Positions 13,499 through 41,260 of a DNA stretch of 64,000 nucleotides are shown here, piece after piece. The position numbers were made by a program, and so were the translations under genes. Source of the stretch: Actinophytocola sp. (GTDB lineage: Bacteria; Actinomycetota; Actinomycetes; Mycobacteriales; Pseudonocardiaceae); contig NZ_DATBKY010000172.1 of NCBI RefSeq assembly GCF_036555685.1, forward strand, positions 6,412 through 70,411. The letters are read 5' to 3'. A model generated the notes under the pieces. It made no database searches and had not been told where the DNA came from. It saw only the letters and a program-made list of their open reading frames with translations. Each line of letters starts with the position of its first letter. Within the stretch, counting starts at the first letter, position 1.

Positions 13499-13508
13499 CG
13501 TCACCGGC

Positions 13509-15312: not shown

Positions 15313-15313
15313 G

Positions 15314-19254: not shown

Positions 19255-20856
19255 GTGACACAGTTCGACTACGTCATCGTCGGCGCGGGACCCGCCGGCT
19301 GCGTGCTCGCCAACCGGCTCTCCGCGGACCCCGGGGTCAGCGTGCTGCTGATCGAGGCGGGCGACCAGGACACGAACCCGCTCATCGCCATCCCACGTGG
19401 CTTCGGCGAGCTGCTGGGCGACCCGAACACCGCGTGGCACTACCCCACCCGTCCGTTCGGCCCGGCGCGGCAGCAGGAGTTCTGGGTGCGCGGCAAGACG
19501 CTCGGCGGGTCGAGCGCGGTCAACGGCATGGTCTACAACCGCGGCCAGCCCGCGGACTACGACGCGCTCGAGCGGCTCGGCAACCCCGGATGGGGCTGGG
19601 CGGACATGCTGCCGGTCTTCAAGACGATCGAGGACAACCCGCTCGGCGAGTCCGCCGTCCGCGGCAGCGGCGGACCCCTGCGCGTGTCGACGCCGGATGC
19701 CGGCGACCCGTTGCTCGAGGACATCATCACCGCGGGCACCTCGCTCGGCTGGCGGCGGACGGCCGATCTCAACGAGGCGGACGAGGAGCGCGTCGGCTAC
19801 GCGACCTCGACCATCCGCGACGGCCTCCGGGTCAGCGCGGCCGGCGCGTTCCTGCACCCGGTCATCGGCCGGCCCAACCTGAGCGTGGCCGTGGAGACGC
19901 TCGTCGACCGCGTGCTGCTCGACGGCGGCCGGGCGACCGGCGTGCGGGGCCGGCAGGACGGCGAGATCTTCCAGGCGCACGCGACCCGCGAGGTGATCCT
20001 CGCGGCGGGCTCCCTCGCGACGCCCAAGATCCTGCAGCTGTCCGGCGTCGGACCCGCGGACGCGTTGCGCGCCGCGGGCGTGGACGTCGTGGTGGACAGC
20101 CCGAACGTCGGCGGCCGGATGCGCGAGCACCGCGTGTTCACCATGATGTTCCGGCTCGCCGAGGACCTCGGCTACAACAAGCTGCTCAGCACCGAGGCCG
20201 GCCAGGCGCGGGCCATGGAGGAGTACCAGCGCTCGCGCACCGGTGTGCTCGCCGGGCCGTCGTTCGACATCGTCGGCTTCTTCAAGACCCGCCCGGAGCT
20301 CGACCGCCCGGACGCCCAGTTCCAGATCGCGCCGTTCTCCGTGCTGCCGCCAGAGCCCGGCAAGGCGCTGCAGATCGAGCAGGAGCCGGGGATCATGGCC
20401 GTGGCCTACATCCTGCGGCCGGAGAGCCAGGGCGGCATCCGCATCACCTCGGCGGACCCGGACGCACCACTGGACATCGACACCGGCTACCTCACCGCCG
20501 AGTACGACCGCGTGACGTCCGTCGACGTCTTCCGCGGCATGCGCCGGATGTTCGCCGCCGAGCCGCTCGCGAAGCGGATCGCGCACGAGCTCGTGCCCGG
20601 GCCCAACGTGGACACCGACGAGCAGATCCTCGACGCCGGCCTCGTCATGGGCGGGTGCGGCTACCACGCGATCGGCACCTGCGGGATGGGCCCGGACGAC
20701 GGCGACGTGGTCGACCCGCGGCTGCGCGTGCGCGGGGTGGCGAACCTGCGCGTCGTCGACGCCTCGGTGCTGCCGATCATGGTGTCCGGCAACCTCAACG
20801 GTCCGGTCACAGCGCTGGCGTGGCGGGCCGCCGACCTCATCCTCGCGGGACAGTGA
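19255..20856 (+). CDS. GMC-family FAD oxidoreductase (choline dehydrogenase-like); probable cluster member
   Basis: GAGPAG FAD motif, RGKTLGGSSAVNGMVYNRG, YHAIGTC catalytic His, GNLNGP; GGGAG RBS. Confidence 0.92.
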   Translation: MTQFDYVIVGAGPAGCVLANRLSADPGVSVLLIEAGDQDTNPLIAIPRGFGELLGDPNTAWHYPTRPFGPARQQEFWVRGKTLGGSSAVNGMVYNRGQPADYDALERLGNPGWGWADMLPVFKTIEDNPLGESAVRGSGGPLRVSTPDAGDPLLEDIITAGTSLGWRRTADLNEADEERVGYATSTIRDGLRVSAAGAFLHPVIGRPNLSVAVETLVDRVLLDGGRATGVRGRQDGEIFQAHATREVILAAGSLATPKILQLSGVGPADALRAAGVDVVVDSPNVGGRMREHRVFTMMFRLAEDLGYNKLLSTEAGQARAMEEYQRSRTGVLAGPSFDIVGFFKTRPELDRPDAQFQIAPFSVLPPEPGKALQIEQEPGIMAVAYILRPESQGGIRITSADPDAPLDIDTGYLTAEYDRVTSVDVFRGMRRMFAAEPLAKRIAHELVPGPNVDTDEQILDAGLVMGGCGYHAIGTCGMGPDDGDVVDPRLRVRGVANLRVVDASVLPIMVSGNLNGPVTALAWRAADLILAGQ

Positions 20857-20877
20857 CCACTCCGCCCTGGTTCTCGA

Positions 20878-22428: not shown

Positions 22429-22441
22429 GGCGCCCGGCTGG

Positions 22442-23464: not shown

Positions 23465-23496
23465 CGTGCACTCCTTCTTGAATCGATCATCTGAGG

Positions 23497-26400
23497 TCAG
23501 CTCTGCGTCGCGATCCGGAACAGCTCGCGGACCGGGGTGTCGGGCGCGGCCGCCGCCCGGGCGAGCACGGCGAGCAGGCCGGCCCGCCACCGCCGCACGG
23601 TCGCCTCGTCGAACAGCGCGGCGTCGTACTCCCAGCCGCCGGCGAGGCTGCCGTCCTGCTGGGGCAGCAGGGAGACCGCGCTCTCGTAGTGCAGGCCGAT
23701 CGGCGCGTACACCGGTCCGATCGGGGCGAAGTCGAACCCGTTGTCGCCGCCGACGAGCTCCATGTCGAACTCGCTCGTCCGGAACGCCCGGCCCGCCATC
23801 GGCGCGTTCTGTACGGAGAAGCAGGCCGCCAGCGCCGCGTCCGGGATCGCCAGCTCGGCACGCAACGTCTCGAACGGCACGGTCGGGCGGCCGAACGCGG
23901 CGGTGGTCACCTCGCGGGTGACACGCAGCAGGTCGGCGAACGTGGCCGCACCGGCCACCGGCACCCGGACCACGAGCCGGTTGACGAACCAGCCGACCAG
24001 CCGCTCCCAGTGCGACCGGACGCGCAACGCGTTCGGCGTGACGACGGCGATCTCGTCCGCGCCGGAGTGGGCGGCGAGGACCGCGGCGTGGGCGGCGAGG
24101 CCGGTCATGTACAGCGACGTGCCGCTGCGCTTGCCGAGCGCGTCCACCGCCGCGCCCAGCTTCCGGTCGACGACCAGGTCGAGGAAGCCGGGCCGGAACT
24201 CGTGGCCCGCGCGCTCGACCTCGGTGGGCAGCCCGATGCCGCCGAGCCCGCGCAGCTGGTCGCGCCACGCGGCCAGGTCCTCTCCGTAGCGCGGGCCGGC
24301 CCGGTACTCGCGGTGCCACTGGACGAACTCGGCATAGTCGCCCTCGATGGGCTTGAGGTCGGGCTCGGTGCCGTCGGCGTAGGCGTGGTAGGCGGTGCCG
24401 ATCTCGTGCAGCGTGATGCCGATGGACCAGCCGTCGATCGCGGTGTGGTGGACCGTCCACTGCACGACGTGGTCGTCCGGGCCGAGCCGGTGCACGCGGG
24501 CGCGGATCAGCGGGCCGGCGGCCAGGTCGAACGGGCGGGCGCCCTCCTCCCGGATGAGCCGGCGGACCGTGCGCTCGGGGTCCGGACCCGCCACATCGGA
24601 CACCTCGACCGGGATCTCGGTCAGGTCCAGCACGCGCTGGACGTATTCGTCGCCCTCGCGGTGCAGGGAGACCCGCAGCGGCGCGTGCCGGCGCACCAGC
24701 AGCGCGAAGGCCCGGCGCAGCGCGCCGAGGTCGAGCCGGCCGCGCATGCGTACCGCGAACGGGGCGTTGTACCAAGGGTCGTGGCCGTAGCCCTCGTCCG
24801 CGCGGAAGAGCGCCTCCTGCGGGAAGGACTGGGGCAGCACGGTTCCCGGCGTCATGCGCGGCACGGGCCGCTCGGCGTAGACCTGGTCCTGGCGCGCGCT
24901 CGCGCGCTCCCGTTCCCGTTCGACCAGCGTGGCCAGCCGGGCGACGGTCGGCTCGGCGAGGAAGTCGGCGAGCCCGATGTCGACGCCCAGCCGGTCCCGC
25001 ACCCGTGCGGTCACCTGGGTGGCCTGCAGCGAGTTGCCGCCCAGCTCGAAGAAGTCGGTCGACTTGTCCACAGTAGACAGCGAGAGCAGCGGCCCGAGGA
25101 CCTCGGTGGCGATGACGCGTTCCAGCTCGGTCCACTCCGTGTCCGTGGCCGTCGCCGCCGGTTCGGGCGGGGCCGGGAGCGCCCGGCGGTCGATCTTGCC
25201 GCTCGGGGTGCGGGGCAGCTCGGCCAGGACGGCGAGCCGGGTGGGAACCATGTAGTCGGGCAGCCGCGCGGCCGCGACCTCGCGGACCTCGTGGAGTGCC
25301 GGCTCCTCACCGGCGGGCACGACGTATGCGGTCAGGTGCCGGCCGGCGTCCGCGCCGTCCCACACCTCGACCGCGACCTGCCGCACCCGTGGGTCGGCGG
25401 CCAGCACCGACTCGACCTCGCCGAGCTCCACCCGGAACCCGCGGAGCTTGACCTGGCGGTCCACCCGGCCGAGGAACTCGAGTACGCCGAGCGACGACCG
25501 GCTGGCGGCGTCGGGCAGCGGCACCGGTGTCCACCGCGCCAGGTCGCCGGTGCGGTACAGCCGCGCGCCCGGTTCGTCGCCGAAGGGGTCGGGCACGAAC
25601 CGGTCGGCGGTGTGGCCGGGCCGGCCGAGGTAGCCGCGGGCGAGCCCGGCCCCGGCGATGCACAGCTCCCCCGGGACGCCCGCCGGCACCGGGCGCAGGT
25701 GCTCGTCGAGCACGTACGCGCGATGGTTGGGCATCGGCAGGCCGATCGGCGGGATCCGCCCGCCGGAGGGTGGCTCGCAGCGCATGAGGGTGACCGCGAC
25801 CGTGGTCTCGGCCGGGCCGTAGCCGTTCCAGAACTCGCGGCGCTCGGTGGCCCACTCGTCGACGAGCACGCCCGGTGGCGCCTCGCCGCCGACCGACACC
25901 AGTCGCAGGTGGGGCAGCGCGGCGGGGTCGAGCAGCGGCATCAGGCTCGGTGGCAGCTCGGCGGCGGTGACGCGCTGCTCGATCAGCAACCGCTGCAGCG
26001 CCTCGACCGAGAGGCGTTCCTCGTCGCCGGCCAGGACCAGCGTCGCGCCGGCACAGAGCGCCGACCACAGGTCGAACACGGACACGTCGAACGTGAGCGC
26101 GGCGAAGCCGAGCAGCCGGGTTTCCGGCCCGATCCCGTAGGCGGTCGCGATGTGCCGGGAGAAGTCGGCGACCGCGCGGTGCTCGACCAGGACGCCCTTC
26201 GGCCGGCCGGTGCTGCCCGATGTGTAGATGACGTAGGCGCCGCCGTCCGGCCGTGCGGTCATCGCATCGACCGGCCGCGCCGCCGTCGATTCCGGCTCCA
26301 GCACGGGAGTCCCGTCCGGGAACCGGTCCGCCAGGTCGGCCGTCGTGACCACTATGGACACTCCGGCGTCGGCGCACAGGTACGCGATGCGGGCCGGCGG

Positions 26401-29400
26401 ATACTTCGGGTCGACGGGCACGTACGCGGCGCCGGCCATCATGATGCCGAGCGGCGCCCACACCGTCGCGGCGGTGCGCGGCAGGCATACCGCGACCCGG
26501 TCCTCCGGGCCGACGCCTCGCTCGCGGAGCTCGGCCGCCAGCCCGGCTGCCCGGTCGAGCAGCTGCCGGTAGGTCAGCTCGCCGTCGGTCGCGACGAGCG
26601 CGGTCGCGTCGGGGTCCTGCTGGACGACCAGGCCGGGAATCGTGGCGGGTGGGTCGTTGAGCAGGCCGCCGTCGCCCGCGCGCAGCAGCTCGGCCCGCTC
26701 CTCGCCGGTGACCAGGTCGGCGGCGTCGATGGGCCGGCCCGGCTCGGCGCGGTCGAGTGAGACGGCGAGGGCGGTACGCCGGATCAGCGCGGTCACGGTG
26801 TGCTCGGTGATCGCCCGCCCGTCGAACACGGCGGTGATCTCGGTGCCGCCGTCGGGTGCGGGCGCGATGTCGAGGCCCACGGTGGCGGCCGCGTGCGGCG
26901 CGAGCCGGCCGGCTCGGTCGTGCACGGCGACGCTGACGAGCGGGTCCTCGGCGAGCATCGAGCGCAGCTTGGACCATGGCACGTCGGCGTTGCGCCGGGC
27001 GGCCTCGAGCGCCTCGGTGGCGGCGTCGGTCAGTCCCGCACCGATCGCGACCCGGACCGGCAGCATCCGGCAGAAGGGCCCGGGCACGCCGTCGAGGTCG
27101 GGGGGCAGGACCGGGCGGGTGACCACGCCGAGGACGACGTCGTCGTCGCGCCCGCAGCGGCCGAGCACGAGCGCGAGGGCGGCGAGCCAGCGCCTCGTCG
27201 TGGCGGTCTCCGCCACGGTGAGGCTGGCCTGTCCACGGGCGGGCGCGCCGGGCGCCACGCGGTCGGCGGGGATGCCCGAGGCCGGGGCGCCGCGAAGGGT
27301 GGTCTTCCAGTACGCCTCCTGCCGTTCCCGCTCGGCGGTGCGCCGCGGATCGACCTGCCAGGCCGCGTAGTCGTCGTAGGTGAGCGTCGTGGCGCCAGCC
27401 GGCTTGTCCATTGTGGACTCGACCCACGGTCGCAACGCCTCGGCCTCGGCGTAGAACTCCTGCTGCACCGACCGAGGTACCCGACCGCGGACCCGCCCCG
27501 GCCGGATGGGCGGGACGGCCCGCTGCGCCGCCCGCAGCCCGGCGAGGAACCCGGTGCGCCGCGGCTCGGGCCACGCGGCGAGGCGGTCCGCGAGCGGCCG
27601 GGACTCGACGTGCTCGCGCCCGGGGTCGGCCCCGATCAGCGCGGGGACGTCGACATGCCCGCTCGCGGACCGCGGCAGCTCGGCGATCTGCCGGACGTCC
27701 GCGGGCAGCAGAGCGCTGGGCACGCGCTGGCGCAGCCGGTTGAGCGACGCGGCCACGTCGACGCCGCGCCCGCCGGCACCGGCGACCCAGGCCCGCTCCC
27801 CCAGGACGACGGCCGCCGCGATGGCATCGTCGCGTTCGAGCTGCGCGGCCACCCAGAGATCCTCGCCACCGGGCCGATCGCCCAGCCGCTCGAGCGTGCC
27901 ATCGCCCCGGCGACGCGCCCGGACTCCGGTACGAACGTCGCCGTCCGCACCGGTGACGACCAGTTCCCCGGCCACGGCATCGGGCACCGGCCGACCGGCC
28001 GGGTCGGCAAGCCAGCCACCCGGAACCGCTCCGAAGTCCTGCTGCCCCGGCGGAACGCAGGCGTACACGCCGCCGGTGGCAGCCGTACCGAACACACGCC
28101 ACGCGCCCGGCACGGCGGGGCCGGCGACCACACCGCCATCGCGCGGGCCAGGCGCGAGCGGGTCGCGGAACTCCGGCGACGCGCCGGCGGCCAACGCGGC
28201 CAGCGCCACCGGCAGCAACGCCGGGTCGTCAGCGCCCAAGGCGAGCACGGCAGGCGAGCCCGGCTCGAACGGCAGCGCGCTCGCCGCCGCCACTGCCTCG
28301 GCCAAGGTCCGGGCCGACGCACCTCGCCAGCGGCCGGATGGCTCATCGGGTGGCGGGGCGTCGGCCGACAGTGCCAGGTGGACGACGGAAACCGGTGGGG
28401 GCACGGCGAACGACGTACCGTCCGGGACGACGAGCACCGCCGCGTCACGGCAGCGTGCGGCCAGCTCGGTGGCCGACGCGTCCAGCGGGACCTGCTCGAC
28501 GTCCGCGCCGAGTGAGAGGGCACCGAGCGCGGCGGCGAGCAGGTCCGGCGACGCGGGTAGGCGGAGCAGCACCCGGTCGCCGGCGCGTACGCCCGCCGCC
28601 CGCAGCTGGGCAGCGGCCGCGCCCGCCGGGGCGTATGCGGGTAGCGGTGCGACCGGGCGCGGCGGCACGGGCTCCACGTCGGCGGGCGCCACCAGCGGGA
28701 TGTCGCTCAACCGCTGGTCGTCCGGTGCGGAGGCCAGCTCCTTTAGCAGCCGTCCGTAGCGGTCGGCGAGCCACTCGGCGACCGGGCGGTCGATGCGGTG
28801 CTCGTCGTACTCCACCCGGACCCAGATCGAATCCGTCGGCAGGGCGACCGACACCACCAGCGGCAGGCCGGTCTGCTCCTGCTGGCGCAGCGCGCGGACG
28901 GTGACCGTGCCGGTCGACTCGGCGGTGTCCGATTCGGACAGGAAGTAGTTCTGGAAGCCCAGCACGCTCTCGTACAGCGGCTCCCCCATCGGCACCGCGC
29001 TGCACCGCTGCGCCGCGGCCACCGGGATGTGCTCGAACGCGCGGCCGGCGATCAGCTGTTCCTGTACCGCGGCGAGCCACGGGCCGACCGGCAGCTCACC
29101 GTCGACGGCGACGCGCACCGGGACCGTGTTGACGAACATGCCCACCCGCTCGGTCACGCCGGGCAGCTCCGCGGGGCGGCCGGACACGGTCGTGCCGAAA
29201 ACCGCGTCGGGGGTGCCCGCGCACCGCGACAGCAGCAGGCCCCACGCGGCGTGGGCGATCGTGCTGGGCAACACCCCCGGCCGGCGGGCCAGGACACCGG
29301 GCACGAAGCGCTCGATCCGGCCGGCCGGTCCGGCCTCGGCGCTGACCCGTCCCACCCGGTCGACGCCGAGCGGGGTGGGGTGCCGCAGGTCGCCGAGCAG

Positions 29401-31319: not shown

Positions 31320-31321
31320 GG

Positions 31322-33340
31322 TCAGCCCACCCCCGCCTCGGCGCGCAGCACGGCGGGTGCCGCGTCGCCCGCGATCGCCACGGGCGCCGCCAGGTAGTGC
31401 CGGCGCACCGGCGATCCGTCGGTCATGCCGAACGCACCGTGCAGGTGGACGGCCTCGCGGCTGGCGTCCAGCGCCAGCGCGCCCGCCTCGGCGAGCACCC
31501 CGGCGGCGAGCGCGGGATCCGGTCCGCCGTCGTCGAACCGCCCGGCCAGGTCGGTGACGAGCGCGGTGAGCGCGTGCAGCCGGACGGCGAGGCGGGCGAG
31601 CCGGAACGCGATGTCCTGGTTGGCGATCAGCGCCCGGCCGAACTGCTCGCGGGTGCGCGCCCGATGGACGGTGTGCGTCAGGCAGCCGCCCGCGAGGCCG
31701 AGCAGCCACGCGGCACGGCGCACCCGCCCGGCGGCGAGCACCTCGGTGCCGTCGGCGAGCACGTCCGCGGCCGCCGCCGGACCGTCGACGGCCCACACCC
31801 GGCCGGTGGCCGTCTGATGTGGACGGAACGGCAAGCCGGTGGCGAGCGCGAGCGCCGGCCCGTCCTGAACGGCCACCACGGCGTCGGCCGAACCGGGGTC
31901 GGCGACGACGGGGCGGTCGGGCTGGCGGAGGTCGGCGAGCACGGCGCGCCAACTGCCGTCCAGCGGGGGCAGCTCGCGACCGGCCCGCACGAGCGCGTCG
32001 ATCGCGGTGAGGGTGTCGAGGATGCCGTCGTCGTGCAGGCCGCGGCCCAGCTCCGCGCAGCAGATCACGGCCGCGCGCAGGCCGAGGTCCAGCCCGCCGC
32101 GCTCGGCCGGCACGGTCAGCCCGAACACCCCGAGCCGGGCCAGCTCCGGCCAGCACGCGCCGGCGGGGTCGCGCTCGTCGTACGCGCCGGCCACGGCCCG
32201 GCACGCCGCGCGCAGCTCGGCGGCCAGCGGCTCGTCGGCGTCGGGCAGCGGCAGGCCGGAGGAGGCGACCAGCTCCAGCATCATCTCCGAGGTGCCGGCG
32301 GACAGGGTCAGTCCGGGCGCCTCGCGGTAGGCGGACTCGAGCACGCCCGGCTGCCGCAGCGCCGCGGGCCCGGCCGTCTCGGCACACCACCACGCGACCG
32401 ACCGGGCGGTCTCGGCGCACCACAGCTTGGTCGCGGCCGCGGCGACCGCGTCCACCCGGCCGGTGTCGAGCTGGTCGACGCAGCGCTCCGCGAGTGCGCG
32501 GCCGGCCGCCGTGTGCGTGCGCAGGCGGCCGTACTCCGCCGCCTGCTCGCTCGCCGGGTGCACGGCGCGCAGCCACCGGTCGGCCTTGGCCACGTAGTCG
32601 ACCCCGGTGCGCTCCAGCGCGAGCGCCTCGGTGATCAGCGGCCACGCGCCGCCGACCGGGCCGATCACCGCGGTGGCCGCTACCTCGACGCCGTCGAGCC
32701 GCACGTCCGCGAAGTCGTCGTCGGCGAGGGAAGCCAGCCGGCCGATCGTGATGCCGGGCAGGTCCAGCGGGACCAGGAACAGCGTGATGCCGCGGTAGGG
32801 CGTGGCCTCGACGCTGGTCCGCGCCGCGACCAGGCCGTAGTCGGCCAGGGCGGTGCCCACGCTGTAGACCTTGTGGCCGCTGATGCGCCAGCCGTCCCCG
32901 GCCCGTGTCGCCGTGGCTTCCAATGTGGACAGATCGGAGCCGACGCCGGGCTCGGAGTAGAGCACGGTCGCGGTCCGCCGGCCGGCGGCGAGGCCGGGGA
33001 GCACGGCGGCGCGCTGTTCGGGTGTGCCGGCGGTCAGCAGGAAGTTGCCGCAGATCTGGACGGACAGGGTGTGCAACACCTCGGGCACCCCACCGGCGAT
33101 GAGCTCGCCGACGACCGCGGCGGCGCAGCGGGCGGGCAGGGCGCGTCCGCCGTAGGCCCGCGGCCACGAGACCGCGAGCAGCCGCTGCTCGCCCAGCAAG
33201 CGGTAGAGCGGCCGCGGGTCGGGCTCGGTCCCCGCCCGACGCGCCTCGGTCACGGCCGCCAAGGCGTCGCGTGCCGCCGGGCCGGCGAGCACCGCGCGGA
33301 CCTCCTTGGCCGCGAGCTCCGCCTCGGGGTCGGTTGTCAC
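31322..33340 (-). CDS. Fused tandem acyl-CoA dehydrogenase-like flavoenzyme (672 aa)
   Basis: N-terminal ACAD (WPRAYGG, SEPGVGSDL, ISGHKVY, ALER, AGTSEMM) followed by a shorter second ACAD-like unit (REQFGRAL, HLHGAFGM); GTGA overlap with the upstream NRPS stop. Confidence 0.85.
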   Translation of the reverse strand: MTTDPEAELAAKEVRAVLAGPAARDALAAVTEARRAGTEPDPRPLYRLLGEQRLLAVSWPRAYGGRALPARCAAAVVGELIAGGVPEVLHTLSVQICGNFLLTAGTPEQRAAVLPGLAAGRRTATVLYSEPGVGSDLSTLEATATRAGDGWRISGHKVYSVGTALADYGLVAARTSVEATPYRGITLFLVPLDLPGITIGRLASLADDDFADVRLDGVEVAATAVIGPVGGAWPLITEALALERTGVDYVAKADRWLRAVHPASEQAAEYGRLRTHTAAGRALAERCVDQLDTGRVDAVAAAATKLWCAETARSVAWWCAETAGPAALRQPGVLESAYREAPGLTLSAGTSEMMLELVASSGLPLPDADEPLAAELRAACRAVAGAYDERDPAGACWPELARLGVFGLTVPAERGGLDLGLRAAVICCAELGRGLHDDGILDTLTAIDALVRAGRELPPLDGSWRAVLADLRQPDRPVVADPGSADAVVAVQDGPALALATGLPFRPHQTATGRVWAVDGPAAAADVLADGTEVLAAGRVRRAAWLLGLAGGCLTHTVHRARTREQFGRALIANQDIAFRLARLAVRLHALTALVTDLAGRFDDGGPDPALAAGVLAEAGALALDASREAVHLHGAFGMTDGSPVRRHYLAAPVAIAGDAAPAVLRAEAGVG

Positions 33341-36300
33341 TGCGCCGCCTCCGGGTCCAGGTCCGCCAGGCCGGCGAGCAGGCCGGCGACCGCCACGTCG
33401 TCGAGGCCCGCGTCCGGGAAGTCGGCCGCGGAGTACACGGTCTCGGCCGTCGCGCAGTGCGCCACGAGCCGGACCAGGTGGTCTCGCACCTGCTCGGCCA
33501 GGCCGTCGGCGCCGGTGACGATCAGGCGGGGACCCGCCAGCGTCACGAGCGTCCGGGGCCCCGCGTCGCCGATCGCGGTCACCTCGGCGGCGTCCGGCAC
33601 GGGCAGGACCCGCACGCCAGGCACGGCCGGGTCGTCGTCCTCGGCTGCCCGGAACGCCTCCTTTACCGCGCGGATCAGCTCGGCGTCACCGCGCACCCGG
33701 CCGACCCGCAGCAGCCCAGGCTCGGCGCGGCCGTCCGCGGAAGGCTCGGCGCGCCGCGTGTCGGCGACCGCGACGGCCGGCTCGCCCGTCGCCGCGATGG
33801 TCGCGGCGATGACGAGGTCGGTGGTCGTGGTGGCGTACGCCTCGTGGGCCGGGCCGGCCAGCGCGGCCACCGTCTCCGGCGGCACGAGCACGCCGAGCCC
33901 GGCCGTCTCGTGTGGACCGTCCGGGCAGAGCCCACGCACGAGCCGGCCCAGCGTCCAGTCGTCTACATGGGACGGATCGGCGGTCAGCCGGCGGCCGTCG
34001 ACGGTGACGCCGGGTACCGTCGGCGTCTCGGCCGCGGGAGCCGGCAGGCGGATCACGGTCGGGCCGGCGATGCCGAGGGGCGCCGACCGCTCGACCGGTT
34101 CCGCCGCGTCGAGCGCCTGGGCGAGCGCGCGGATCGTACGCAGGTCGAGGATCTGCCGGACGGTCAGCTCGAGCCCGTGCCGGCGGGCCTCGGCGACCGC
34201 GTGGATGGCGAGGATCGAGTCGCCGCCGATGTCGAAGAAGTCGTCGGTGACGCCGAAGTCGCCCGCCGGGAGCAGCCACTCCCAGCCTTCCAGCAGGGTC
34301 TCCTCGGTCGGCGTGGCGGGATCCTCCGGTGCCTCCCGGGCAATCGGTGCGGCCGCCGGGTCGTCGCTGACCTCGGCCACCTCGCCGGTCCGACCACAGA
34401 GGACCAGCGTGCCGTCGGGCCGGAGGCGTGCCAGGTCCCCGGTCCGGAAGCGGCGCGCACCGCCCGCGTCCGGCACGAACGCGGCGGCCGTCGCGCCGGG
34501 TGCGGCGGGATACCCGCGGGTGACGCGCGGCCCGCCGACGTGCAGCTCGCCCCGGCAGCCCGACGGCACCGGACGGCCCCACCGGTCCAGCACGGACAGC
34601 CGAACCCCGGGCAGCGGCCGGAGGGGCTCGTCGAGCCGGCCGGCGGCAACGGGCCCCGCGGGGTCGTACAGGGTGACCGCGTCCCAGCCCGCGTCCCGCA
34701 GCCGGGACCGCAAGACGGGTTCGACCTGCTCGCCCGCCAGGACGGCGGCCCGGCGGGGCCGCAACGCCGCGGCGTCGCCGACCGCGAGCATGGCCGCGAG
34801 GTGCGACGGCGTCGTGGTCAGGAAGTCGACCGGATGCGCCGCGAGGAACGAGCCGAGCTCCTGCGGATCGAGCGCGGTCGCCTCGTCGACGACGTGCAGC
34901 GCGCCGCCCCCGGCCAGCGCGCAGAGCACCGGCGTCAGCGACGAGTCGACGGTCGGCGGCTGCACCAGCAGGTGGCTCGCCCCGGCCGGCAGCTCGGCGA
35001 GCAGGCCACGCACCATCGACACGAGGTTGCGATGCGTGAACAGCACGCCGTCGTCGAGCATCAGGCACGCGCCGTTGTCCGGCCGCGCCACCGGGCCGGG
35101 CGGGCCCGGATCCGGCACCGCCGCCACGTCGATCGGCAGCACCTGCACCGAGGCGGGCAAGGCGACGTCGGCGAACGGGAGCGCCAGCGCCAGCCGGGCA
35201 CCGCACCGCGCGGCGACGGCGGACAACTCCGCCGCGGTCTCCCCCGGATCGACCGGCACGCACACCCCACCCGCCTTCAGCACCCCGAGCAGTGCCACCG
35301 CGTACTCGGCGGACCGCGTCAGCGCGACCAGGACCGGGGTTTCCGGACCGGCGCCGTGCGAGCGCAGGCCGTGCGCGACCCGGTTCGCCGCGGCGTCGAG
35401 GCCGGCGAAGGAAAGCGACCCGCCCACCCACACGACCGCCGGTGCGTCGGGCGTGGCCGCCGCCCGCTGCGAGACCAGCTCGTGCAGCAGCGTGTCCTCG
35501 ACAACGGGCGCGGGCACGGCAGGCTCGTCCCACAACGCGTCGAACGTCCATACGGGACGATCCGGCGCGGCGAGGCCGGCGCGCAGCAGGCGCGGGAACA
35601 CCTCGCACACCAGAGCGGCCGCGGCGGGGTCGACCACGTCCGGCCGGTACCGCACGCTCCCGGTGTAGGGCGTGGGCTCGGACTCCAGATCCAGCCACAG
35701 GTCGTGGGTGACGGTGCCCGTGTCGATCAGCGAGGCGTCGACCGCCCGCGGCATGCGGCCCGCCGGCAACCGCGGCGGCGCCGGTGGCTTCAGGTTGATC
35801 GCGGCCTGCGCCAGCGGCGTCACACCCGCCGCCCGCTCGGGCGCCACCGCCGCCACGATCTGGTCGAACGCGACCGAGCCGTGGTCGTGCGCCTCGCCGA
35901 CCACCCGCCGCGCCGCCCGCACGAGCTCGCGGAACGTCGGCCCGCCGGAGAGGTCGAGCCGCAGCACCACCTGGTCGACGAACATGCCGATGACGTCGCG
36001 CAGCTCCGGCAGCGGCCGCCCGGCGACCGGGCTCGCGACCGCGACGTCCGCGCCGCCGAAGACCCGGCCGAGCGTGGCCGCGTACGCCGCGAGCATGCCC
36101 ATGAACGCGGTGGCCCGCTCCGCCCGGACGAACTCGTCGAGGGCCGCCGCGGTGGCGGGCTCGATGGCGAAGTCCAGCCGGCGGCCGCGCTGCGACACCC
36201 GCTCGGGCCGCGGCCTGCCGTGCGTGAGATCCACTGTGGACAGGTCGGCCAGCTGCCCCCGCCAGTAGTCCAGGTCCTGCCGCGCGACCGGCTCGGCGGA

Positions 36301-36852
36301 TCGCTCTTCCTGCCAGGCCGTGAAGTCGGCGTACTGCACCGGCAGCTCCGCCCAGTCCGGCGCCTGGCCGGAGAGCCGCCGCTCGTAGGCCACGGTGAGG
36401 TCGCGGATGAAGATCTCGGCGGAGATGGCGTCCGCGATCGCGTGGTGCAGCACCACGACCAGGCCGTCGGTGTCCGCGCCGAGCCGGACGTGCGTCATGC
36501 GCCACAGCGGGGCGCGGCCGAGGTCGAACACCTCCGTGCCGACCCGCGCGCACAGCTCGAGGTAGGCGGACTCGGAGTCGTCGCTCAGGTCGGCGAACCC
36601 CACGGTCACGGCCTCCGGCACCGCCTCGACGACCTGCCACAAGCTGTTGTCCCGCACCGTGAACCGGGTGCGCAGCGACTCGTGCCTGCCGACCACGTCC
36701 GCCACCGCCGCCCGCAGCACCGCGGGGTCGAACCGGCCGGCGTAGCGGCGTTCGAAGCTGATGTTGTGCACCGGCTCGTCCGGCACCAGCTGCTCGACGA
36801 ACCAGAGCTGCTGCTGGGCCCGCGACGCCCGGACGGTCAGGACATCGCTCAC
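33337..36852 (-). CDS. NRPS: C - A(degenerate) - T - E(degenerate) (about 1171 aa)
   Basis: C with HHAIADA (~36440); A lacks the TSGSTG loop (GACLMLDDGVLFTH), has YDPAG for YGPTE and lacks the A8-A10 subdomain; T GGDSI (~34217); short E-like tail (EAYATTTTDLVIA, VKEAFRA, SAADFPDAGL). Start re-picked at GTG 36852. Confidence 0.85.
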   Translation of the reverse strand: MSDVLTVRASRAQQQLWFVEQLVPDEPVHNISFERRYAGRFDPAVLRAAVADVVGRHESLRTRFTVRDNSLWQVVEAVPEAVTVGFADLSDDSESAYLELCARVGTEVFDLGRAPLWRMTHVRLGADTDGLVVVLHHAIADAISAEIFIRDLTVAYERRLSGQAPDWAELPVQYADFTAWQEERSAEPVARQDLDYWRGQLADLSTVDLTHGRPRPERVSQRGRRLDFAIEPATAAALDEFVRAERATAFMGMLAAYAATLGRVFGGADVAVASPVAGRPLPELRDVIGMFVDQVVLRLDLSGGPTFRELVRAARRVVGEAHDHGSVAFDQIVAAVAPERAAGVTPLAQAAINLKPPAPPRLPAGRMPRAVDASLIDTGTVTHDLWLDLESEPTPYTGSVRYRPDVVDPAAAALVCEVFPRLLRAGLAAPDRPVWTFDALWDEPAVPAPVVEDTLLHELVSQRAAATPDAPAVVWVGGSLSFAGLDAAANRVAHGLRSHGAGPETPVLVALTRSAEYAVALLGVLKAGGVCVPVDPGETAAELSAVAARCGARLALALPFADVALPASVQVLPIDVAAVPDPGPPGPVARPDNGACLMLDDGVLFTHRNLVSMVRGLLAELPAGASHLLVQPPTVDSSLTPVLCALAGGGALHVVDEATALDPQELGSFLAAHPVDFLTTTPSHLAAMLAVGDAAALRPRRAAVLAGEQVEPVLRSRLRDAGWDAVTLYDPAGPVAAGRLDEPLRPLPGVRLSVLDRWGRPVPSGCRGELHVGGPRVTRGYPAAPGATAAAFVPDAGGARRFRTGDLARLRPDGTLVLCGRTGEVAEVSDDPAAAPIAREAPEDPATPTEETLLEGWEWLLPAGDFGVTDDFFDIGGDSILAIHAVAEARRHGLELTVRQILDLRTIRALAQALDAAEPVERSAPLGIAGPTVIRLPAPAAETPTVPGVTVDGRRLTADPSHVDDWTLGRLVRGLCPDGPHETAGLGVLVPPETVAALAGPAHEAYATTTTDLVIAATIAATGEPAVAVADTRRAEPSADGRAEPGLLRVGRVRGDAELIRAVKEAFRAAEDDDPAVPGVRVLPVPDAAEVTAIGDAGPRTLVTLAGPRLIVTGADGLAEQVRDHLVRLVAHCATAETVYSAADFPDAGLDDVAVAGLLAGLADLDPEAAQ

Positions 36853-37079
36853 CGCGACCCGGCCTCCGGTTCCATCGCGCGGCGCAAGCTCTTCGGGCGC
36901 ATGTCCGTCCAGACCTGGTCGATGTGGGCGAGGCACTCGTCGCGGCCGCCGGTGAACCCGGTCGGCCGCCAGCCGGCGGGCGGGTCCTGGTCCGCCGCCC
37001 AGACCGAGTACTGCTCCTCGTCGTTCACCACGACCTGGAAGGTCTCCATTGCTGCTCCCGCTGCTCCGGTCATGATCAT
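36849..37079 (-). CDS. mbtH: MbtH-like protein
   Basis: VVVNDEEQYSVW...PAGW...CLAHIDQVWTDMRPKSL; CAGGAG RBS; overlaps both neighbours (ATGA/GTGA). Confidence 0.95.
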   Translation of the reverse strand: MIMTGAAGAAMETFQVVVNDEEQYSVWAADQDPPAGWRPTGFTGGRDECLAHIDQVWTDMRPKSLRRAMEPEAGSR

Positions 37080-40000
37080 GTTCTCCTGGCCCGGCCGGCC
37101 GTCCGGCGCCGGCCGCGGCGGGCCGCACCACGCTCGGCGGCACCCGACACCACGGCGCGGTCGGCCTGGCCGTCGAGGAACGCGGCCAGCGCGCGCACGG
37201 TCGGGTAGCTGAACAGGTCGACCACCCGTGGCTCGCCGGGCAGCAGCTTCGCCAGGGACACCAGGTCCATGGACGTGCCGCCGAGGTCGAAGAAGTTCTG
37301 GGTCACGCCGACGGACTCCCGCCGCAGCACCGCGCACCACGCGGCGGCCACGACCCGCTCGGTCGGCCCGCCGGGCGGCTCGGCCGGCTCGGCGCGGACC
37401 GGCTCGGTACTCGGCACCGGCTCCGCGGTCAGGCCCGCCCGCAGCGTGCCGAGCTGCGGGATCGCGAACGAGCCGACCGGGGCGAGCGGGTCGGCCAGCG
37501 CGGCGTCGAGCAGGTGGACGAGCGCGGCCAGCATCGTCTCGATCCGTTGCGCGGCAAATAGATCCGGGTTGTAGACGAGCTCGAAGCGCATCCGCCCGTC
37601 GCGTTCGACCAGGTAGGTGGTGAGGTCGAACGGCGAGCCCGGCACGCCGGGCGGCAGCGGCTCGACCCGGATGCCCGGCAGCTCCAGCGGCGCCTGGGCG
37701 AAGTTGTAGACGTTGAACAGCACCTGGACGAGCGCGCCGCGGGACGGGTCGCGCGGCAGGGTCAACGCGTCCACGATCTGCTCGAGGGGTGCGTCCGGGT
37801 GCGCCAGCGCGTCGAACAGCTCGTCGCGGCAACCGGTGACCAGCTCGACGAAGGTGCTGTCGCCGGTGCGGCCCAGCCGCAGCGGCACGATGTCGACGAA
37901 GAAGCCGATCAGGTCGGCGAACGCGGCGTGCCGGCGGTCCGCGACCGGCGAGCCGATGACCACCTCGTCCCGGCCGGCCACGCGGCGGAGCAACTCGCCG
38001 TACGCGGCGAGCACCACGGTCGACGGGGTCGCGCCCAGCTCCGCGGCGAGCGCCCGGATCGCCGCGTCGGTGGCCGGGCGCAGGTCGGCGGCCGCGAACT
38101 CGCCCGCGTAGCTCTGCTCGGCCGGGCGCGGGTGGTCGCGCGGCAGGTCGAGCACGGTCGGCGCGCCGCCGAGGTGCCCGGTCCACCACGCCAGGTCGTC
38201 CTTGCCACGCCGGCCGGACCGCTCCTCGCGCCAGGCGACGTAGTCGGCGAACGCGGCGGGCAGTGGCGGCCGCACCGTGCCGGCGTACGCGGCGGCCAGC
38301 TCCTGGTAGAGGATCCGCTCGGACCAGCCGTCGAACACCGCGTGGTTCGCCGTGATCGCCAGGACGTGCTCCGTCGCGCCGAGCCGCAGCAACCGCGCCC
38401 GCAGCAGCCCGCCCGCGGCGAGGTCGAACCGCGTACCGGCCTCGGCGTGCAGCCGGTCGCGCACCACCCGCTCGCGCTCGTCGGCGGGCAGGGAGCTGAG
38501 GTCCTCGACCGGCAGCGGCACCTCGGCGACCGGGCCGAGAACCGCGTACGGGTGGCCGCCCTCGTGCGGCACCCGCCAGCGCAGCACGTCGTGCCGCGCC
38601 ACCACCTCGACGAGCGCGCGGCGCAATGCGTCGAGGTCGAGGTGCCCGTGCAGCCGCTGCGCGAGCGCGATGTTGTACGCGGCGGCGTCCGGGGCGAGCT
38701 GGTCGAGGAACCACAGCCGGCGCTGGGCCGCGGACAACGCCGGCGGGTTCCCGGTCGGCAGGTCTGTACCGTCCACATCGGACAGCTCGGCGGCGGCCGC
38801 GACCCGCTTGGCGAGCCCGCCGAGCGTGCGGGCGGCGAACACGTCCTCGACCGCGACGTCGCGGCGCAGCTGCTGGCGCAGCGCGGCGACCAGGCGCATG
38901 GCCGCGAGCGAGTGCCCGCCGCCGGCGAAGAAGTCGTCCTCGGCGGACACGGCCGGCACGCCGAGCACGTCGCACCAGATGACGACGACCTCCGCGGGCA
39001 CGCCCGGCACGTCCGCGACTCCGGCGGGCAGCTCCGCCGTCAGGCCGGCCACCAGCGCGGCCACGTCCACCTTGTCCGACGGGGTCAGCGGCAGCTCGGC
39101 GAGCCGGCGGAAGCGGGTCGGCACCATGACGGCCGGCAGCCGGGCGGTGAGGTAGTCGCGCAGCTCGGCGTCGTCCGGCGCGTTCGCCGGCGTGACGAAC
39201 GCGGCCAGGCTCACCTCGGTCCGGCCGGGCACGGCGGCCACCACCGCGTGCCCGACGTCCGGGTGCGCCCGTACGGCCGCCTCGACCTCGGCCAGCTCCA
39301 CCCGCTGGCCACGCACCTTGACCTGGCGGTCGGTGCGGCCGTGGAACCGCAGCTGCCCGTCGGCGCCCCAGCTGACCAGGTCGCCGGAGCGGTAGAGGCG
39401 CTCGCCGGGCACCGCGCCGAACGGGTCGGGCACGAAGCGGTCGGCGGTGAGGCCGGGCGCACCGAGGTAGCCCCGGCTGACACCGGGCCCGCCGATCAGC
39501 AGCTCGCCCGGGACCTCCGGCGGCACCAGGCGGAGGTCCTCGTCGACCACGTACAGGCGGTGGTTGAGCATCGGGCGGCCGATCGGGATCGGCGTGTGCC
39601 ACTCGCCGGACACGACGAACCCGGCGACCGCGACGGTGGTCTCGGTCGGGCCGTAGCCGTTCATCAGCCGCCGTCCGTTCGCGGTCCAGCGGGCCACCTG
39701 CTCGGGGCCGGGCGCCTCGGCCCCGGTCACGACCGCGCGCACGAGCGGCAGGTCGGCCGGGTCGAGGAGCGGGAGCAGCGCGGGCGCCACCTCGGCCCAG
39801 GTCACCTCGTGGGCGACCAGGAAGCGGCGCAACCGGTCCGGGTCCGCCCGGTCGGCCTCGGCGGCGAGCTGCACGGACGCGCCGACCATGAGCGCCACCA
39901 GCAGCTCCAGCACCGACACGTCGAAGGCGATCGACGTGATCGCGAGCGCCCGCGCGCCGTGCTCCATCCGGCCACGCTCGCGGATGCCGGTCATGAACGC

Positions 40001-40558
40001 CGCCACGTTGGCGTGGCTGACGACGACGCCCTTGGGCCGGCCGGTCGAGCCGGACGTGTAGATGACGTAGGCCGCGTTCGCCGGCACGGCCGGGCAGGTG
40101 AAGTCGTCCCGCCCCGCATCCGGAAGGTCGACCATGGACACGTCGGTACCGGCGAACACGGAGCGGCCGGCGGCGTCGGCGACCACGCACGTCACGCCCG
40201 CGTCCCGCGCGGTGTCGGTCAGCCGCAACGCCGGCAGATCGGGGTCGAGGGGAACGTAGGCGCCGCCGGACAGCAGCACGCCGACGAGTGCCACGAGCAG
40301 TCCGGGATGCCGCCCGACGCAGATGCCGACCCGGTCCTCGGGCCGGATGCCGGCCGCGTGCAGCGTCGCGGCGAGCCGGCGGGCGGCGGCCAGCAGCTCC
40401 GCGTAGGTGAGCTCGGTGTCCCACTGGCGCACGGCGACGGCGTCCGGCTGCGCCGTGGCGGTCGCGGCGATCAGCTCGCCCACGGTGCCGTCCGGGATGC
40501 CCGGCCGGTCGGCGACCATCCACTCCGGAGGTACCGCGGACAACGGGGCCGCGCTCAT
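37076..40558 (-). CDS. NRPS: A - T - C - T (1160 aa)
   Basis: Intact A (YTSGSTGRPKG, GYGPTE, RSGD, KVRGQRVEL, DKVD); T1 GGGHSL (~38910); C with NHAVFDG (~38340); T2 FFDLGGTSM (~37272). Confidence 0.92.
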   Translation of the reverse strand: MSAAPLSAVPPEWMVADRPGIPDGTVGELIAATATAQPDAVAVRQWDTELTYAELLAAARRLAATLHAAGIRPEDRVGICVGRHPGLLVALVGVLLSGGAYVPLDPDLPALRLTDTARDAGVTCVVADAAGRSVFAGTDVSMVDLPDAGRDDFTCPAVPANAAYVIYTSGSTGRPKGVVVSHANVAAFMTGIRERGRMEHGARALAITSIAFDVSVLELLVALMVGASVQLAAEADRADPDRLRRFLVAHEVTWAEVAPALLPLLDPADLPLVRAVVTGAEAPGPEQVARWTANGRRLMNGYGPTETTVAVAGFVVSGEWHTPIPIGRPMLNHRLYVVDEDLRLVPPEVPGELLIGGPGVSRGYLGAPGLTADRFVPDPFGAVPGERLYRSGDLVSWGADGQLRFHGRTDRQVKVRGQRVELAEVEAAVRAHPDVGHAVVAAVPGRTEVSLAAFVTPANAPDDAELRDYLTARLPAVMVPTRFRRLAELPLTPSDKVDVAALVAGLTAELPAGVADVPGVPAEVVVIWCDVLGVPAVSAEDDFFAGGGHSLAAMRLVAALRQQLRRDVAVEDVFAARTLGGLAKRVAAAAELSDVDGTDLPTGNPPALSAAQRRLWFLDQLAPDAAAYNIALAQRLHGHLDLDALRRALVEVVARHDVLRWRVPHEGGHPYAVLGPVAEVPLPVEDLSSLPADERERVVRDRLHAEAGTRFDLAAGGLLRARLLRLGATEHVLAITANHAVFDGWSERILYQELAAAYAGTVRPPLPAAFADYVAWREERSGRRGKDDLAWWTGHLGGAPTVLDLPRDHPRPAEQSYAGEFAAADLRPATDAAIRALAAELGATPSTVVLAAYGELLRRVAGRDEVVIGSPVADRRHAAFADLIGFFVDIVPLRLGRTGDSTFVELVTGCRDELFDALAHPDAPLEQIVDALTLPRDPSRGALVQVLFNVYNFAQAPLELPGIRVEPLPPGVPGSPFDLTTYLVERDGRMRFELVYNPDLFAAQRIETMLAALVHLLDAALADPLAPVGSFAIPQLGTLRAGLTAEPVPSTEPVRAEPAEPPGGPTERVVAAAWCAVLRRESVGVTQNFFDLGGTSMDLVSLAKLLPGEPRVVDLFSYPTVRALAAFLDGQADRAVVSGAAERGAARRGRRRTAGRARRT

Positions 40559-41023
40559 CGGGCCGGCTCCGCCGGGACGGCGGTGGTGCGCGGCAGGGCG
40601 CGCGCTCGCCGTTGGCTGCGGGCCCGGCTGGCTAAGTTGCCGGCCGACTCGTCGCCCGTCATCGCGCGACCTCCGCCGGGTCGCCCGGGCGCGGCGACGT
40701 GTCTCGCCGAACCTGCCATGAAGTTCCGGGTAGCCCGGTCGTACGCTCCGGCAGCTCGGCTAATGACAGCGTCATCATCCCCTTGGATTGCTCGGCCGTA
40801 CGCACGGAAAAGCGGCCCGTGCGCGCTCGGGCAACCCTGGCTTGTTATGGCTCGTTAATGTCCAACCGAGTCGGACTCTAACCGTTTGCAACGCCGCGAG
40901 ACAAGCGATCCGCGCGGGTGTCATATCCGCCGGAAGATCGGCGATCCGCGCCATTCTGTGCGCCGATCAGCCGGTCCCGTCTACTCCGGTCGGCGGTACC
41001 TCGGCGGTAGCCGTAACCCGGAA

Positions 41024-41040
41024 TGGTTGCGAAGTAACCA
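41024..41040. promoter_or_regulatory. Imperfect 17-bp palindrome in the divergent promoter region of the NRPS operon
   Basis: TGGTTGC-GAA-GTAACCA; arms complementary at 6 of 7 positions. Confidence 0.3.
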
Positions 41041-41260
41041 AATGCGTGACTCGGGGTGATCGCAGGCGCCACTTCGGACTCCGGTCACCGGTCCCGGGGC
41101 GCGGGCGTCGACCGCTCGGGTGGTGGTCCGGCAATCGAGCGCGGGCGCCCTTTTCGCCGACGCGAAATAAGCGTTTGCCGGATTTATGTCGTTTTGCACG
41201 TGGCACCGCCGAGCCGGTGCCGCCTTTCCCGCTCGGCCGGCGGCGCTTACCGTCGGCACC

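Follow-up and report, generated by a model that had tools for sequence, protein, structure and literature searches.

By gene and domain content, the characterised cluster whose architecture appears to lie nearest to the locus described here is that of threopeptin (sna) in Stackebrandtia nassauensis. The sna cluster combines a nonribosomal peptide synthetase (NRPS) of the domain order A-T-C-A-T (A, adenylation; T, carrier; C, condensation) with a polyketide synthase (PKS), an MbtH protein, an acyl-CoA dehydrogenase-like enzyme (ACAD) and a PEARL (PMC11212132). Our locus is an NRPS operon in a 64-kb stretch of DNA from Actinophytocola sp. (contig NZ_DATBKY010000172.1; this whole stretch is called the window below), and it also encodes a heme-oxygenase-like diiron enzyme (HDO) and a fused ACAD. 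As in sna, one C domain stands between two carriers at its front end with MbtH next, an ACAD and a transporter are present, and its sister clusters add a PKS and PEARL-like genes. Unlike sna, the window has no PKS, PEARL or thioesterase (TE), its first synthetase has one A domain for two carriers, and there are two further NRPS proteins and the HDO.

Two other described systems bear on the redox enzymes. HrmI and BelK, of the hormaomycin and belactosin pathways, oxidise the N6 amine of free L-lysine via N6-hydroxylysine to a nitro compound, and the metal ligands of HrmI are a set of three histidines and three carboxylates (PMC13108848). The other is Fic32-33 of Streptomyces ficellus (PDB 8HK0), an ACAD made of two subunits; a literature search found no paper on the function of the Fic32-33 family.

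Our best model is that the locus is a functional NRPS operon of an Actinophytocola-like soil actinomycete and a reduced derivative of a wider NRPS-PKS family, and that its product would be a peptide of about four residues, rich in basic residues. We hold this model, taken jointly with all its parts, with moderate confidence.

The operon and its family

Genes were called by GC3 frame analysis (G+C content at third codon positions) of overlapping open reading frames (ORFs) and by Pfam scans of their products, in a window whose G+C content is 70–77 per cent. This resolved eight co-oriented genes on the minus strand at 40558–20878, in the order NRPS1, MbtH, NRPS2, fused ACAD, major facilitator superfamily (MFS) exporter, NRPS3, HDO and stand-alone A, with the domain strings that an earlier note on this DNA had given them. 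All eight reading frames are intact across 19.7 kb. The successive junctions measure −4, −4, −4, +2, −1, +32 and +13 bp; since stop and start overlap or lie no more than 32 bp apart at every junction, the eight genes form one translationally coupled operon.

We surveyed the family with homologue searches for the HDO and the ACAD, gene-neighbourhood look-ups and a tblastn matrix of cluster parts against ~90 loci, and scanned the ACAD profile over 185,579 species genomes. The earlier note had proposed a search for conserved homologous loci, and these exist. The order NRPS1-MbtH-NRPS2 (with a dead A)-ACAD-MFS-NRPS3-HDO-A was found only in Actinophytocola-like genomes (L008/L011, L012 and L005/L021), and this reduced architecture is maintained across genomes that are ~20 per cent diverged in protein. 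Sister clusters come from Amycolatopsis taiwanensis (DSM 45107; JAFB01000025, about 126–161 kb), Labedaea rhizosphaerae (DSM 45361), Kutzneria sp. (NPDC052558), Kineosporia and several metagenome-assembled genomes (MAGs). Where the region was recovered, the sisters carry a KS-AT(-KR)-ACP module (ketosynthase, acyltransferase, ketoreductase, acyl carrier protein) upstream of MbtH and NRPS2, and in A. taiwanensis and Kutzneria this PKS module comes directly after NRPS1. The A domain of the sister NRPS2 is intact, with the Asp-like code DSTK[IV]GH[IV]GK. Two sister clusters have the HDO, Kutzneria has a TauD gene at the HDO position, and throughout the close family the MFS gene adjoins the ACAD gene.

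The window itself has no KS or AT motifs, and the A. taiwanensis KS, PEARL and DUF6002 proteins had no tblastn match in it. The death of the NRPS2 A domain and the absence of the PKS coincide exactly with the lineage that carries the stand-alone A gene. The cluster at 20878–40558 thus reads as a PKS-less, PEARL-less branch of a family that spans Pseudonocardiales and other actinomycetes. Upstream in A. taiwanensis DSM 45107 (L091, 53–9989) there are DUF6002, an A-T protein, a KS and two Lant_dehydr_N (PEARL-like) genes. A relative of NRPS1 in Micromonospora sediminicola (L092, 1–10004) has a PEARL / A-T-C-T / PKS / MbtH front end, with one PEARL-like gene, and that locus also encodes PanD and a TE. 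The PEARL-like genes link the family to the PEARL-NRPS class of threopeptin.

The earlier note had proposed an undescribed pathway. No named family fits: the HDO, ACAD, stand-alone A, MFS, GMC (a flanking gene) and MbtH proteins are all without an NCBIfam match above cut-off (NCBIfam has no HDO model), and the nearest solved or characterised relatives are only 30–47 per cent identical. The locus is not isolated, being a branch of the wider family, and with Fic32-33 (8HK0) as a solved homologue the fused ACAD belongs to a kind of dehydrogenase already known from NRPS systems. The parts (NRPS, Fic32-33-type dehydrogenase and HrmI-like HDO) are of known kinds. Their combination and the reduced architecture match nothing that we identified, and the cluster is provisionally counted as uncharacterised.

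The locus is also present in environmental data. In several independent soil metagenome runs, 93–95 per cent of its sequence words were found, and in run X1 near-identical contigs cover 19.9–38.7 kb of the window. A soil metatranscriptome contains exact short contigs on the stand-alone A, HDO, NRPS3 and NRPS2 genes.

Domain inventory and carrier loading

Motif scans found four carriers with an intact serine motif (GGHS, GGTS, GGDS and GGNS), four C domains with an active-site xHxxxD (NHAVFDG, HHAIADA, HHLVLDG and HHTAIDG; Table 1) and three A domains with A3, A5, A7 and the conserved A10 lysine (Lys517), the same counts as in the earlier note. Both in-line A domains match the A8 pattern, of which the stand-alone A has a variant; for A10, the variant is in the NRPS1 A, and the other two domains match. 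As the earlier note had stated, there is no TE among the cluster genes, and the sole GxSxG match sits inside a C-domain motif. The cluster has neither a TE nor an R (reductase) release domain, and it does have a C-terminal C domain. No carrier comes after this last C domain of NRPS3, which is the probable release catalyst.

Three domains that the earlier note had labelled dead A, half C and dead E (epimerisation) domain are true relics and not annotation errors, judging from Pfam profile positions, missing motifs and the family alignment. The NRPS2 dead A still scores 157 bits against AMP-binding. It is the relic of an Asp-type domain, with the first code residues DST kept relative to the DSTKIGHIGK of its relatives. 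In the middle of NRPS3, only Pfam AMP-binding positions 31–97 and Condensation positions 171–339 remain, and this relic A*-C* is kept in all close relatives at 30–72 per cent identity. The 257-aa tail of NRPS2 had no Pfam or PDB match, and BLASTP against an intact E domain was also negative; in the family alignment it aligns with the C-terminal half of the intact E domains of L013 and L041, and it retains the terminal Y..DFPDAGLD motif of E domains. The NRPS3 relics and the E* tail are common to the whole family, including members that keep all active domains. The most degenerate stretch of NRPS3, with its many Ala, Gly, Pro and Arg residues, coincides with a blurred GC3 frame signal at 27800–28700, where two frames have about the same G+C richness.

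We computed ratios of nonsynonymous to synonymous divergence (dN/dS, omega) against the two same-architecture Actinophytocola genomes L008/L011 and L012. Strong GC3 bias affects dS, so we use the ratios only to compare one region with another. Every domain falls at 0.2–0.5 (active domains 0.21–0.44, dead domains 0.24–0.52) and none is near 1. By region, omega is 0.44–0.52 for the NRPS2 dead A, 0.45–0.49 for T3 and E*, 0.24–0.47 for the NRPS3 A*-C* and 0.22–0.29 for the ACAD. Dead domains have two to three times the dN of active ones and more indels. Evolution of the relics is relaxed but not neutral, with all regions under purifying selection.

The C domains of NRPS1 and NRPS2 have LCL-type N-termini, and NRPS3 C1 has the DCL-type signature IYPLTxMQxGML, a subtype call that follows established C-domain signatures. 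A DCL-type C1 fits an ancestral E domain in NRPS2. NRPS1 has fourteen orthologues at 72–100 per cent identity with architecture and code unchanged. In its C-domain motif (38150–38170) the first His is replaced by Asn and the catalytic second His is retained; NHAVFDG occurs in the window and in an identical JGI copy, and all thirteen other orthologues have the first His. Ureido chemistry was considered for this domain and rejected: the ureido-forming C domain of sna has the signature EHHxxHDG (PMC11212132), and the corresponding residues are ANHAVFDG in the window and AHHAVFDG in the orthologues.

With four carriers and three live A domains, the in-trans loading proposed in the earlier note still holds, with repeated loading by one domain as an alternative. 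Since the sisters share A-T-C-T and have no stand-alone A, the simplest assumption is that T1 and T2 are both loaded by A1. In the sna system, too, both carriers flanking the first C domain receive the same amino acid (PMC11212132).

The stand-alone A has orthologues at 77–83 per cent identity only in L005/L021, L008/L011 and L012, which are also the only family members without the NRPS2 P-loop and without the PKS. None of the nine relatives with an intact NRPS2 A (DSTK[IV]GH[IV]GK) has an orthologue of it; the stand-alone A that one of them has, the MAG L022, is unrelated and its code differs. Because it is found only where the NRPS2 A is dead, the stand-alone A most likely loads T3 and so replaces the dead domain. 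Its code, DPFFIIVVAK, predicts a shallow hydrophobic pocket, and since this is unlike the ancestral Asp code, the residue at the NRPS2 position has probably changed. The PDB matches of the stand-alone A include LgrA module 2, 6akd (E 1e-93) and 8k4r (E 3e-89), and these neighbours do not separate its possible roles.

The in-line codes are DVLEVGGVAK in NRPS1 and DVFESGGVAK in NRPS3. The latter is invariant, or DIFESGGVAK, in twelve family members; the former is a near variant of the class DVF[D/E]xGGVxK, with Leu for Phe at the third position. Both codes suggest a long cationic residue (Lys/Orn/Arg/DADH type), because they place an acidic residue at 278 and small residues at 301 and 322, as read from general knowledge of specificity codes, those for Orn and Arg included. 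In the PDB, the A domain of NRPS3 matched A domains in a generic way only, which gave no clue to its substrate.

The earlier note's estimate of a product of about four residues still seems sound on this domain count. The non-collinear line that it proposed is not required: NRPS1, NRPS2 and NRPS3 read collinearly, with one A-less and one A-dead module.

The diiron enzyme, the fused ACAD and the flanks

The best PDB match of the HDO is HrmI (9n1a; E 1e-29 over 290 residues, ~30 per cent identity), and BesC, SznF and RohS give near-noise matches. E190, H200, E257, H287, D291 and H294 are invariant in twenty-two HDO homologues down to 28 per cent identity, and these ligand residues align with the same residues of HrmI. 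The window HDO therefore shares with HrmI and BelK both the Pfam family (PF14518) and identical ligand positions. Our leading hypothesis is that it would N-oxygenate the side-chain amine of a basic amino acid. It differs from them in having no HrmJ/BelL-type Fe/2-oxoglutarate (2OG) cyclopropanase, the partner that forms the nitrocyclopropane, nearby; among the genes scanned in the 64-kb window there was none of the 2OG-oxygenase family. It differs also in the setting of its closest orthologues: some belong to this NRPS family, the others to an HMGL-like/ATP-grasp cassette.

Orthologues of the second kind come from Actinomadura macra and Streptomyces sp. NRRL F-4489 (65–70 per cent identity) and from Burkholderia gladioli and a Pseudomonas syringae-group strain (47–53 per cent identity). 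Their cassette looks like an uncharacterised ligase-built small-molecule pathway. In the Pseudomonas strain it adjoins TniB/TniQ and IS66 genes. We looked for HMGL, PALP and ATP-grasp genes in the window and found none. Because orthologues sit in such a cassette, the HDO may make a free building block and not act on a carrier.

The N-half of the fused ACAD matches PDB 8hk0_A at E 7e-84. An AlphaFold (AF2) model (pLDDT 86.8, pTM 0.89) had as its top Foldseek match 8HK0, 'Fic32-33 complex from Streptomyces ficellus' (TM 0.89, 47 per cent identity). The C-half can be aligned along its full length to the beta subunit of a ficellomycin-type locus, L046 (33 per cent identity, E 3e-14); this subunit is itself 8hk0_C (E 1e-157), and its gene follows the alpha gene in such loci. 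In NCBIfam the nearest models, below cut-off, are prolyl-carrier-protein dehydrogenases for the N-half and IpdE2, a non-catalytic beta subunit, for the C-half. The catalytic Glu of the medium-chain (MCAD) type is absent in both halves. The N-half has Glu243 within ALERTG, invariant in seventeen homologues, where the C-half has Gly-Arg; from knowledge of ACAD alignments, we take Glu243 to be at the position of the isovaleryl-CoA dehydrogenase (IVD) base.

The chain thus combines a Fic32-like alpha half, with the ACAD N, middle and C domains, and a base-less Fic33-like beta half, and is a single-chain alpha-beta Fic32-33 dehydrogenase with one predicted active site, in the N-half. Like Fic32-33, it pairs one catalytic with one non-catalytic half; the difference is that there are two subunits there and one 672-aa chain here. 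The single-chain form is present in several separate cluster types.

The gene contexts also differ. L046, whose ACAD alpha is 89 per cent identical to Fic32, encodes a LysX-type ATP-grasp, a C-A-T-TE NRPS, alpha and beta ACADs, a sulfotransferase and a DegT aminotransferase, the set of the AmCP/DADH pathways (AmCP, amino-group carrier protein). Those pathways lead to azabicyclohexane amino acids (PMC11726168). In contrast to the ficellomycin-type loci, the window has no LysX/AmCP, sulfotransferase or DegT aminotransferase genes, and its ACAD gene follows an Asp-derived dead module, not a DVF-type one. Two-subunit ACAD pairs 80–89 per cent identical occur across Streptomyces, Actinophytocola, Herbidospora and Catellatospora (L011–L089, ~79 loci), nearly always preceded by a DVFDFGGVCK module. 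At fifty-three of the ~79 loci, the module directly upstream of the ACAD has DVFDFGGVCK, DVFDFGGVTK, DVGDFGGVTK or DVFESGGVAK, and in >50 loci a Fic32-33-type ACAD lies directly behind a C-A-T module without a PKS. Overall, the enzyme accompanies A domains of the class DVF[D/E]xGGVxK in about 60 loci. The window operon contains codes of the DVF[D/E]xGGVxK class, but its ACAD gene does not adjoin such a module; in L041, where the equivalents of NRPS2 and NRPS3 are fused, the ACAD comes after the DVFESGGVAK module.

From this association we infer that the ACAD would act on a carrier-bound residue selected by the DVF[D/E]xGGVxK code class. Its role is presumably independent of a PKS, because it is kept in the PKS-less lineage at the low omega given above. 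In ficellomycin, the ring nitrogen is bonded to the amino acid C-beta. We propose alpha,beta-dehydrogenation followed by aza-Michael closure, since this would explain that bond.

The convergent GMC oxidoreductase gene was placed correctly in the earlier note, 21 bp from the last gene, and its inclusion in the cluster did not hold up. The tblastn matrix found no GMC homologue in the ~90 related loci, and in L005, the sole orthologue with a visible downstream flank, the A gene is followed by other genes. On these grounds we leave the GMC gene out of the cluster and regard it as a probable neighbour. With its removal two redox enzymes remain, so the note's 'heavily oxidised' product was an overstatement.

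The remaining flanks encode a KatG-like peroxidase, LuxR and AraC regulators, a sulfatase, a lipase, a molybdopterin oxidoreductase, an alcohol dehydrogenase, an aminotransferase, a kinase and ion transporters, with functions unrelated to the cluster. The left flank at 7591–15886 has a 940-aa LuxR-family regulator with AAA and TPR domains, a 533-aa protein without a Pfam match, a methyltransferase, an AraC regulator, a pyridoxal phosphate-dependent decarboxylase and two small ESX/WXG100-like proteins, and none of these genes is conserved beside related clusters. Upstream of NRPS1 we found no sigma-70-like promoter, and no Rfam element matched anywhere in the window. A short ATG-started frame lies upstream of NRPS1 on the minus strand (40660–40790), and in the Actinophytocola orthologue L008 a 104-aa gene is called that overlaps the NRPS1 start.

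Table 1. Cluster genes, NRPS domains and neighbouring features. Positions are those of the window, except for the HDO cassettes, which are numbered within the loci named.
Feature	Position	Strand	Evidence and remarks
NRPS1	37076-40558	-	Pfam: AMP-binding, 2x PP-binding, Condensation
NRPS1 A-T1-C-T2	37076..40558	-	one A for two carriers; code DVLEVGGVAK; C of LCL type, NHAVFDG
MbtH-like protein	36849-37079	-	PF03621, E 1e-19; start overlaps NRPS1 stop by 4 bp
NRPS2	33337-36852	-	Pfam: Condensation, split AMP-binding, PP-binding, plus 257-aa tail
NRPS2 C	35533..36852	-	LCL type, HHAIADA
NRPS2 dead A	34303..35505	-	lacks P-loop, A5, A8, A10 and the entire C-terminal subdomain
NRPS2 T3 and truncated E	33337..34290	-	T3 GGDS; C-terminal half of E only, HHxxxD half deleted
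Fused ACAD, 672 aa	31322-33340	-	Pfam: two ACAD domain sets
MFS exporter	30003-31319	-	Pfam MFS_1 / MFS_3; EntS-like
NRPS3	23497-30003	-	Pfam: 3 Condensation stretches, 2 AMP-binding stretches, PP-binding
NRPS3 C1	28684..30003	-	DCL type; IYPLTAMQQGMLVH, HHLVLDG
NRPS3 relic A*-C*	26704..28671	-	A fragment and C-terminal C lobe, no carrier between
NRPS3 A-T4-terminal C	23497..26646	-	code DVFESGGVAK; terminal C HHTAIDG
HDO (heme-oxygenase-like diiron enzyme)	22442-23464	-	PF14518, E 6e-39
Stand-alone A, 516 aa	20878-22428	-	Pfam; core motifs intact
GMC oxidoreductase (choline-dehydrogenase-like)	19255-20856	+	Pfam; convergent; 21 bp between its end and the A gene stop
Non-coding region, presumed operon promoter	40559-41170	-	upstream of NRPS1
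HDO cassette, L001	7591-14887		HDO 47-70% identical (all four cassettes)
HDO cassette, L003	7570-14868		
HDO cassette, L006	8641-16558		
HDO cassette, L007	8637-16148		

Proposed pathway and rival explanations

In our best model, A1 (DVLEVGGVAK) would load a long, probably cationic residue of the Lys/Orn/Arg class on T1 and probably also on T2, the stand-alone A would load T3 in place of the dead Asp-type domain, and A4 (DVFESGGVAK) would put another residue of that class on T4. The C domains would join T1, T2, T3 and T4 in gene order, with the relic A*, C* and E* pieces serving as structural spacers. The fused ACAD would carry out an FAD-dependent alpha,beta-dehydrogenation of the carrier-bound residue of the DVF[D/E]xGGV class, giving a dehydro residue or Michael acceptor, and the nitrogen of its own side chain may then close a ring with it. 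The HDO would oxidise an amino acid, either before loading or on the peptide; the likeliest reaction is the N-oxygenation of an amine in the side chain, the chemistry of HrmI. The C-terminal C domain would release the product of about four residues, and the MFS pump would export it.

A more specific version goes further. HrmI-like diiron oxidation of a basic amino acid and Fic32-33-type alpha,beta-desaturation on the carrier might together create an undescribed non-proteinogenic residue in which a ring is closed between the (N-oxygenated) side-chain nitrogen and C-beta, in a line that lost its PKS and replaced a dead A domain by a recruited A of other specificity. We offer this extension tentatively, and regard it as doubtful in its full form.

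Several observations weigh against the best model or its parts. HDOs with similar ligands and substrates catalyse very different reactions (PMC13108848), and an identity of ~30 per cent to HrmI appears too low to assign the reaction of the window enzyme. The orthologues outside the NRPS family stand in the order (PALP)-HMGL-like-HDO-unknown protein of ~410 aa-ATP-grasp(-ATP-grasp)-MFS, a setting of another kind. As its gene follows the ancestrally Asp-specific NRPS2, the ACAD may act on T3. The alpha,beta-dehydrogenation assigned to Fic32-33 is itself read from fold, catalytic Glu, gene context and ficellomycin ring chemistry, and the window codes match none that can be assigned with certainty, so that the substrates are predictions from pocket residues. 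At the orthologous locus L005/L021 the reading frames are broken. One X1 contig has an extra C after 27578, in the NRPS3 relic A*-C*, at a depth of 15.8 of 47.2, which is either a frameshift in that sub-population or an assembly error. From these breaks and this 1-bp insertion, some populations may carry inactive copies. The metatranscriptome contigs are a weak sign of transcription, with a thin signal and possible DNA carry-over.

Such damage would be expected if the locus were a decaying remnant that had lost its PKS, PEARLs and one A domain and was now non-productive or silent. Its three relic domains, the PKS missing relative to the sisters, the Asn for the first His of the NRPS1 C motif in the window sequence only (with its identical JGI copy), the fragmented ORFs at L005/L021 and the insertion variant in one metagenome contig all fit this. 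We nevertheless consider decay unlikely, given eight frames that stay intact through 19.7 kb and overlap at their stop and start codons, a reduced architecture kept at ~20 per cent protein divergence with omega of 0.2–0.5 throughout, a compensating A gene and traces of transcript. The NRPS3 relics and E* tail are shared with family members that have all active domains, and the fragmented locus is a single MAG in which assembly indel errors could explain the breaks. The compensating gene has been given another role in a further reading, as a VinM/IdnL7-type enzyme that adds a small residue to the amino group of a carrier-bound intermediate, or else loads T2. The best PDB matches 6akd and 8k4r, labelled in the search merely as 'AMP-dependent synthetase and ligase' and 'non-ribosomal peptide synthetase', are presumably stand-alone aminoacyl-ACP-forming ligases of beta-amino-acid macrolactam pathways, and T2 has no A in cis. 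LgrA module 2 scores equally, so the similarity is generic; the sisters share the A-less T2 yet have no such A gene, and the stand-alone A co-occurs strictly with the dead NRPS2 A. We give this role only a slim chance, and keep to the loading of T3.

Two readings assign the operon a different product. If it made a hydroxamate or hydroxy-aspartate siderophore, the HDO would replace a flavin N-hydroxylase (forming N-hydroxy-Lys or N-hydroxy-Orn), the terminal C would form a lactam and the EntS-like MFS protein would export the product. The MFS protein does match the MFS_3 and EntS models, MbtH is in the operon, N6-hydroxylysine is the HrmI intermediate, some NRPS1 orthologues are named 'MbtE' by JGI, and the Asp-type module of the relatives together with TauD at the HDO position in Kutzneria recalls beta-hydroxy-Asp siderophores. 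The EntS match, however, is far under cut-off (64 vs 324 bits), the Asp module is dead in the window lineage and the ACAD is left without a role. No IdeR/DmdR iron box was found anywhere in the window with three mismatches allowed, and the 64 kb hold no uptake, reductase, N-acyl/N-formyl transferase or N-hydroxylase genes. A siderophore thus seems rather improbable. The ACAD could instead be EpnF/SnaO-like and carry out a decarboxylative dehydrogenation of a released beta-keto acid, to leave a warhead that is an enone or an epoxyketone, of the kind known from threopeptin and the epoxyketones; SnaO is the ACAD that installs an enone in the sna pathway (PMC11212132). The sisters, with NRPS1 (A-T-C-T), a PKS, MbtH and PEARL-like genes, do resemble sna. 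The window has neither PKS nor KS nor PEARL, yet its ACAD is under purifying selection; the enzyme is of the two-subunit Fic32-33 type, which stands behind a PKS-free C-A-T module in >50 loci; and the NRPS1 C lacks the ureido signature. We judge this chemistry to be a long shot here, and favour dehydrogenation of a carrier-bound residue.

If the best model is right, Fic32-33 dehydrogenases, which occur at >70 loci in many actinomycete genera, would be a general, code-linked tailoring of carrier-bound basic residues, beyond the ficellomycin/azinomycin family, and a second HrmI-like diiron clade would be tied to NRPS chemistry. Its product would be a short, cationic peptide in which one residue may be electrophilic or N-oxygenated, and a reasonable protease-inhibitor or antibiotic candidate. 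The window and its PKS-containing sisters together would offer a natural experiment in module loss, dead scaffolds and rescue by in-trans loading, which may be useful for NRPS engineering.

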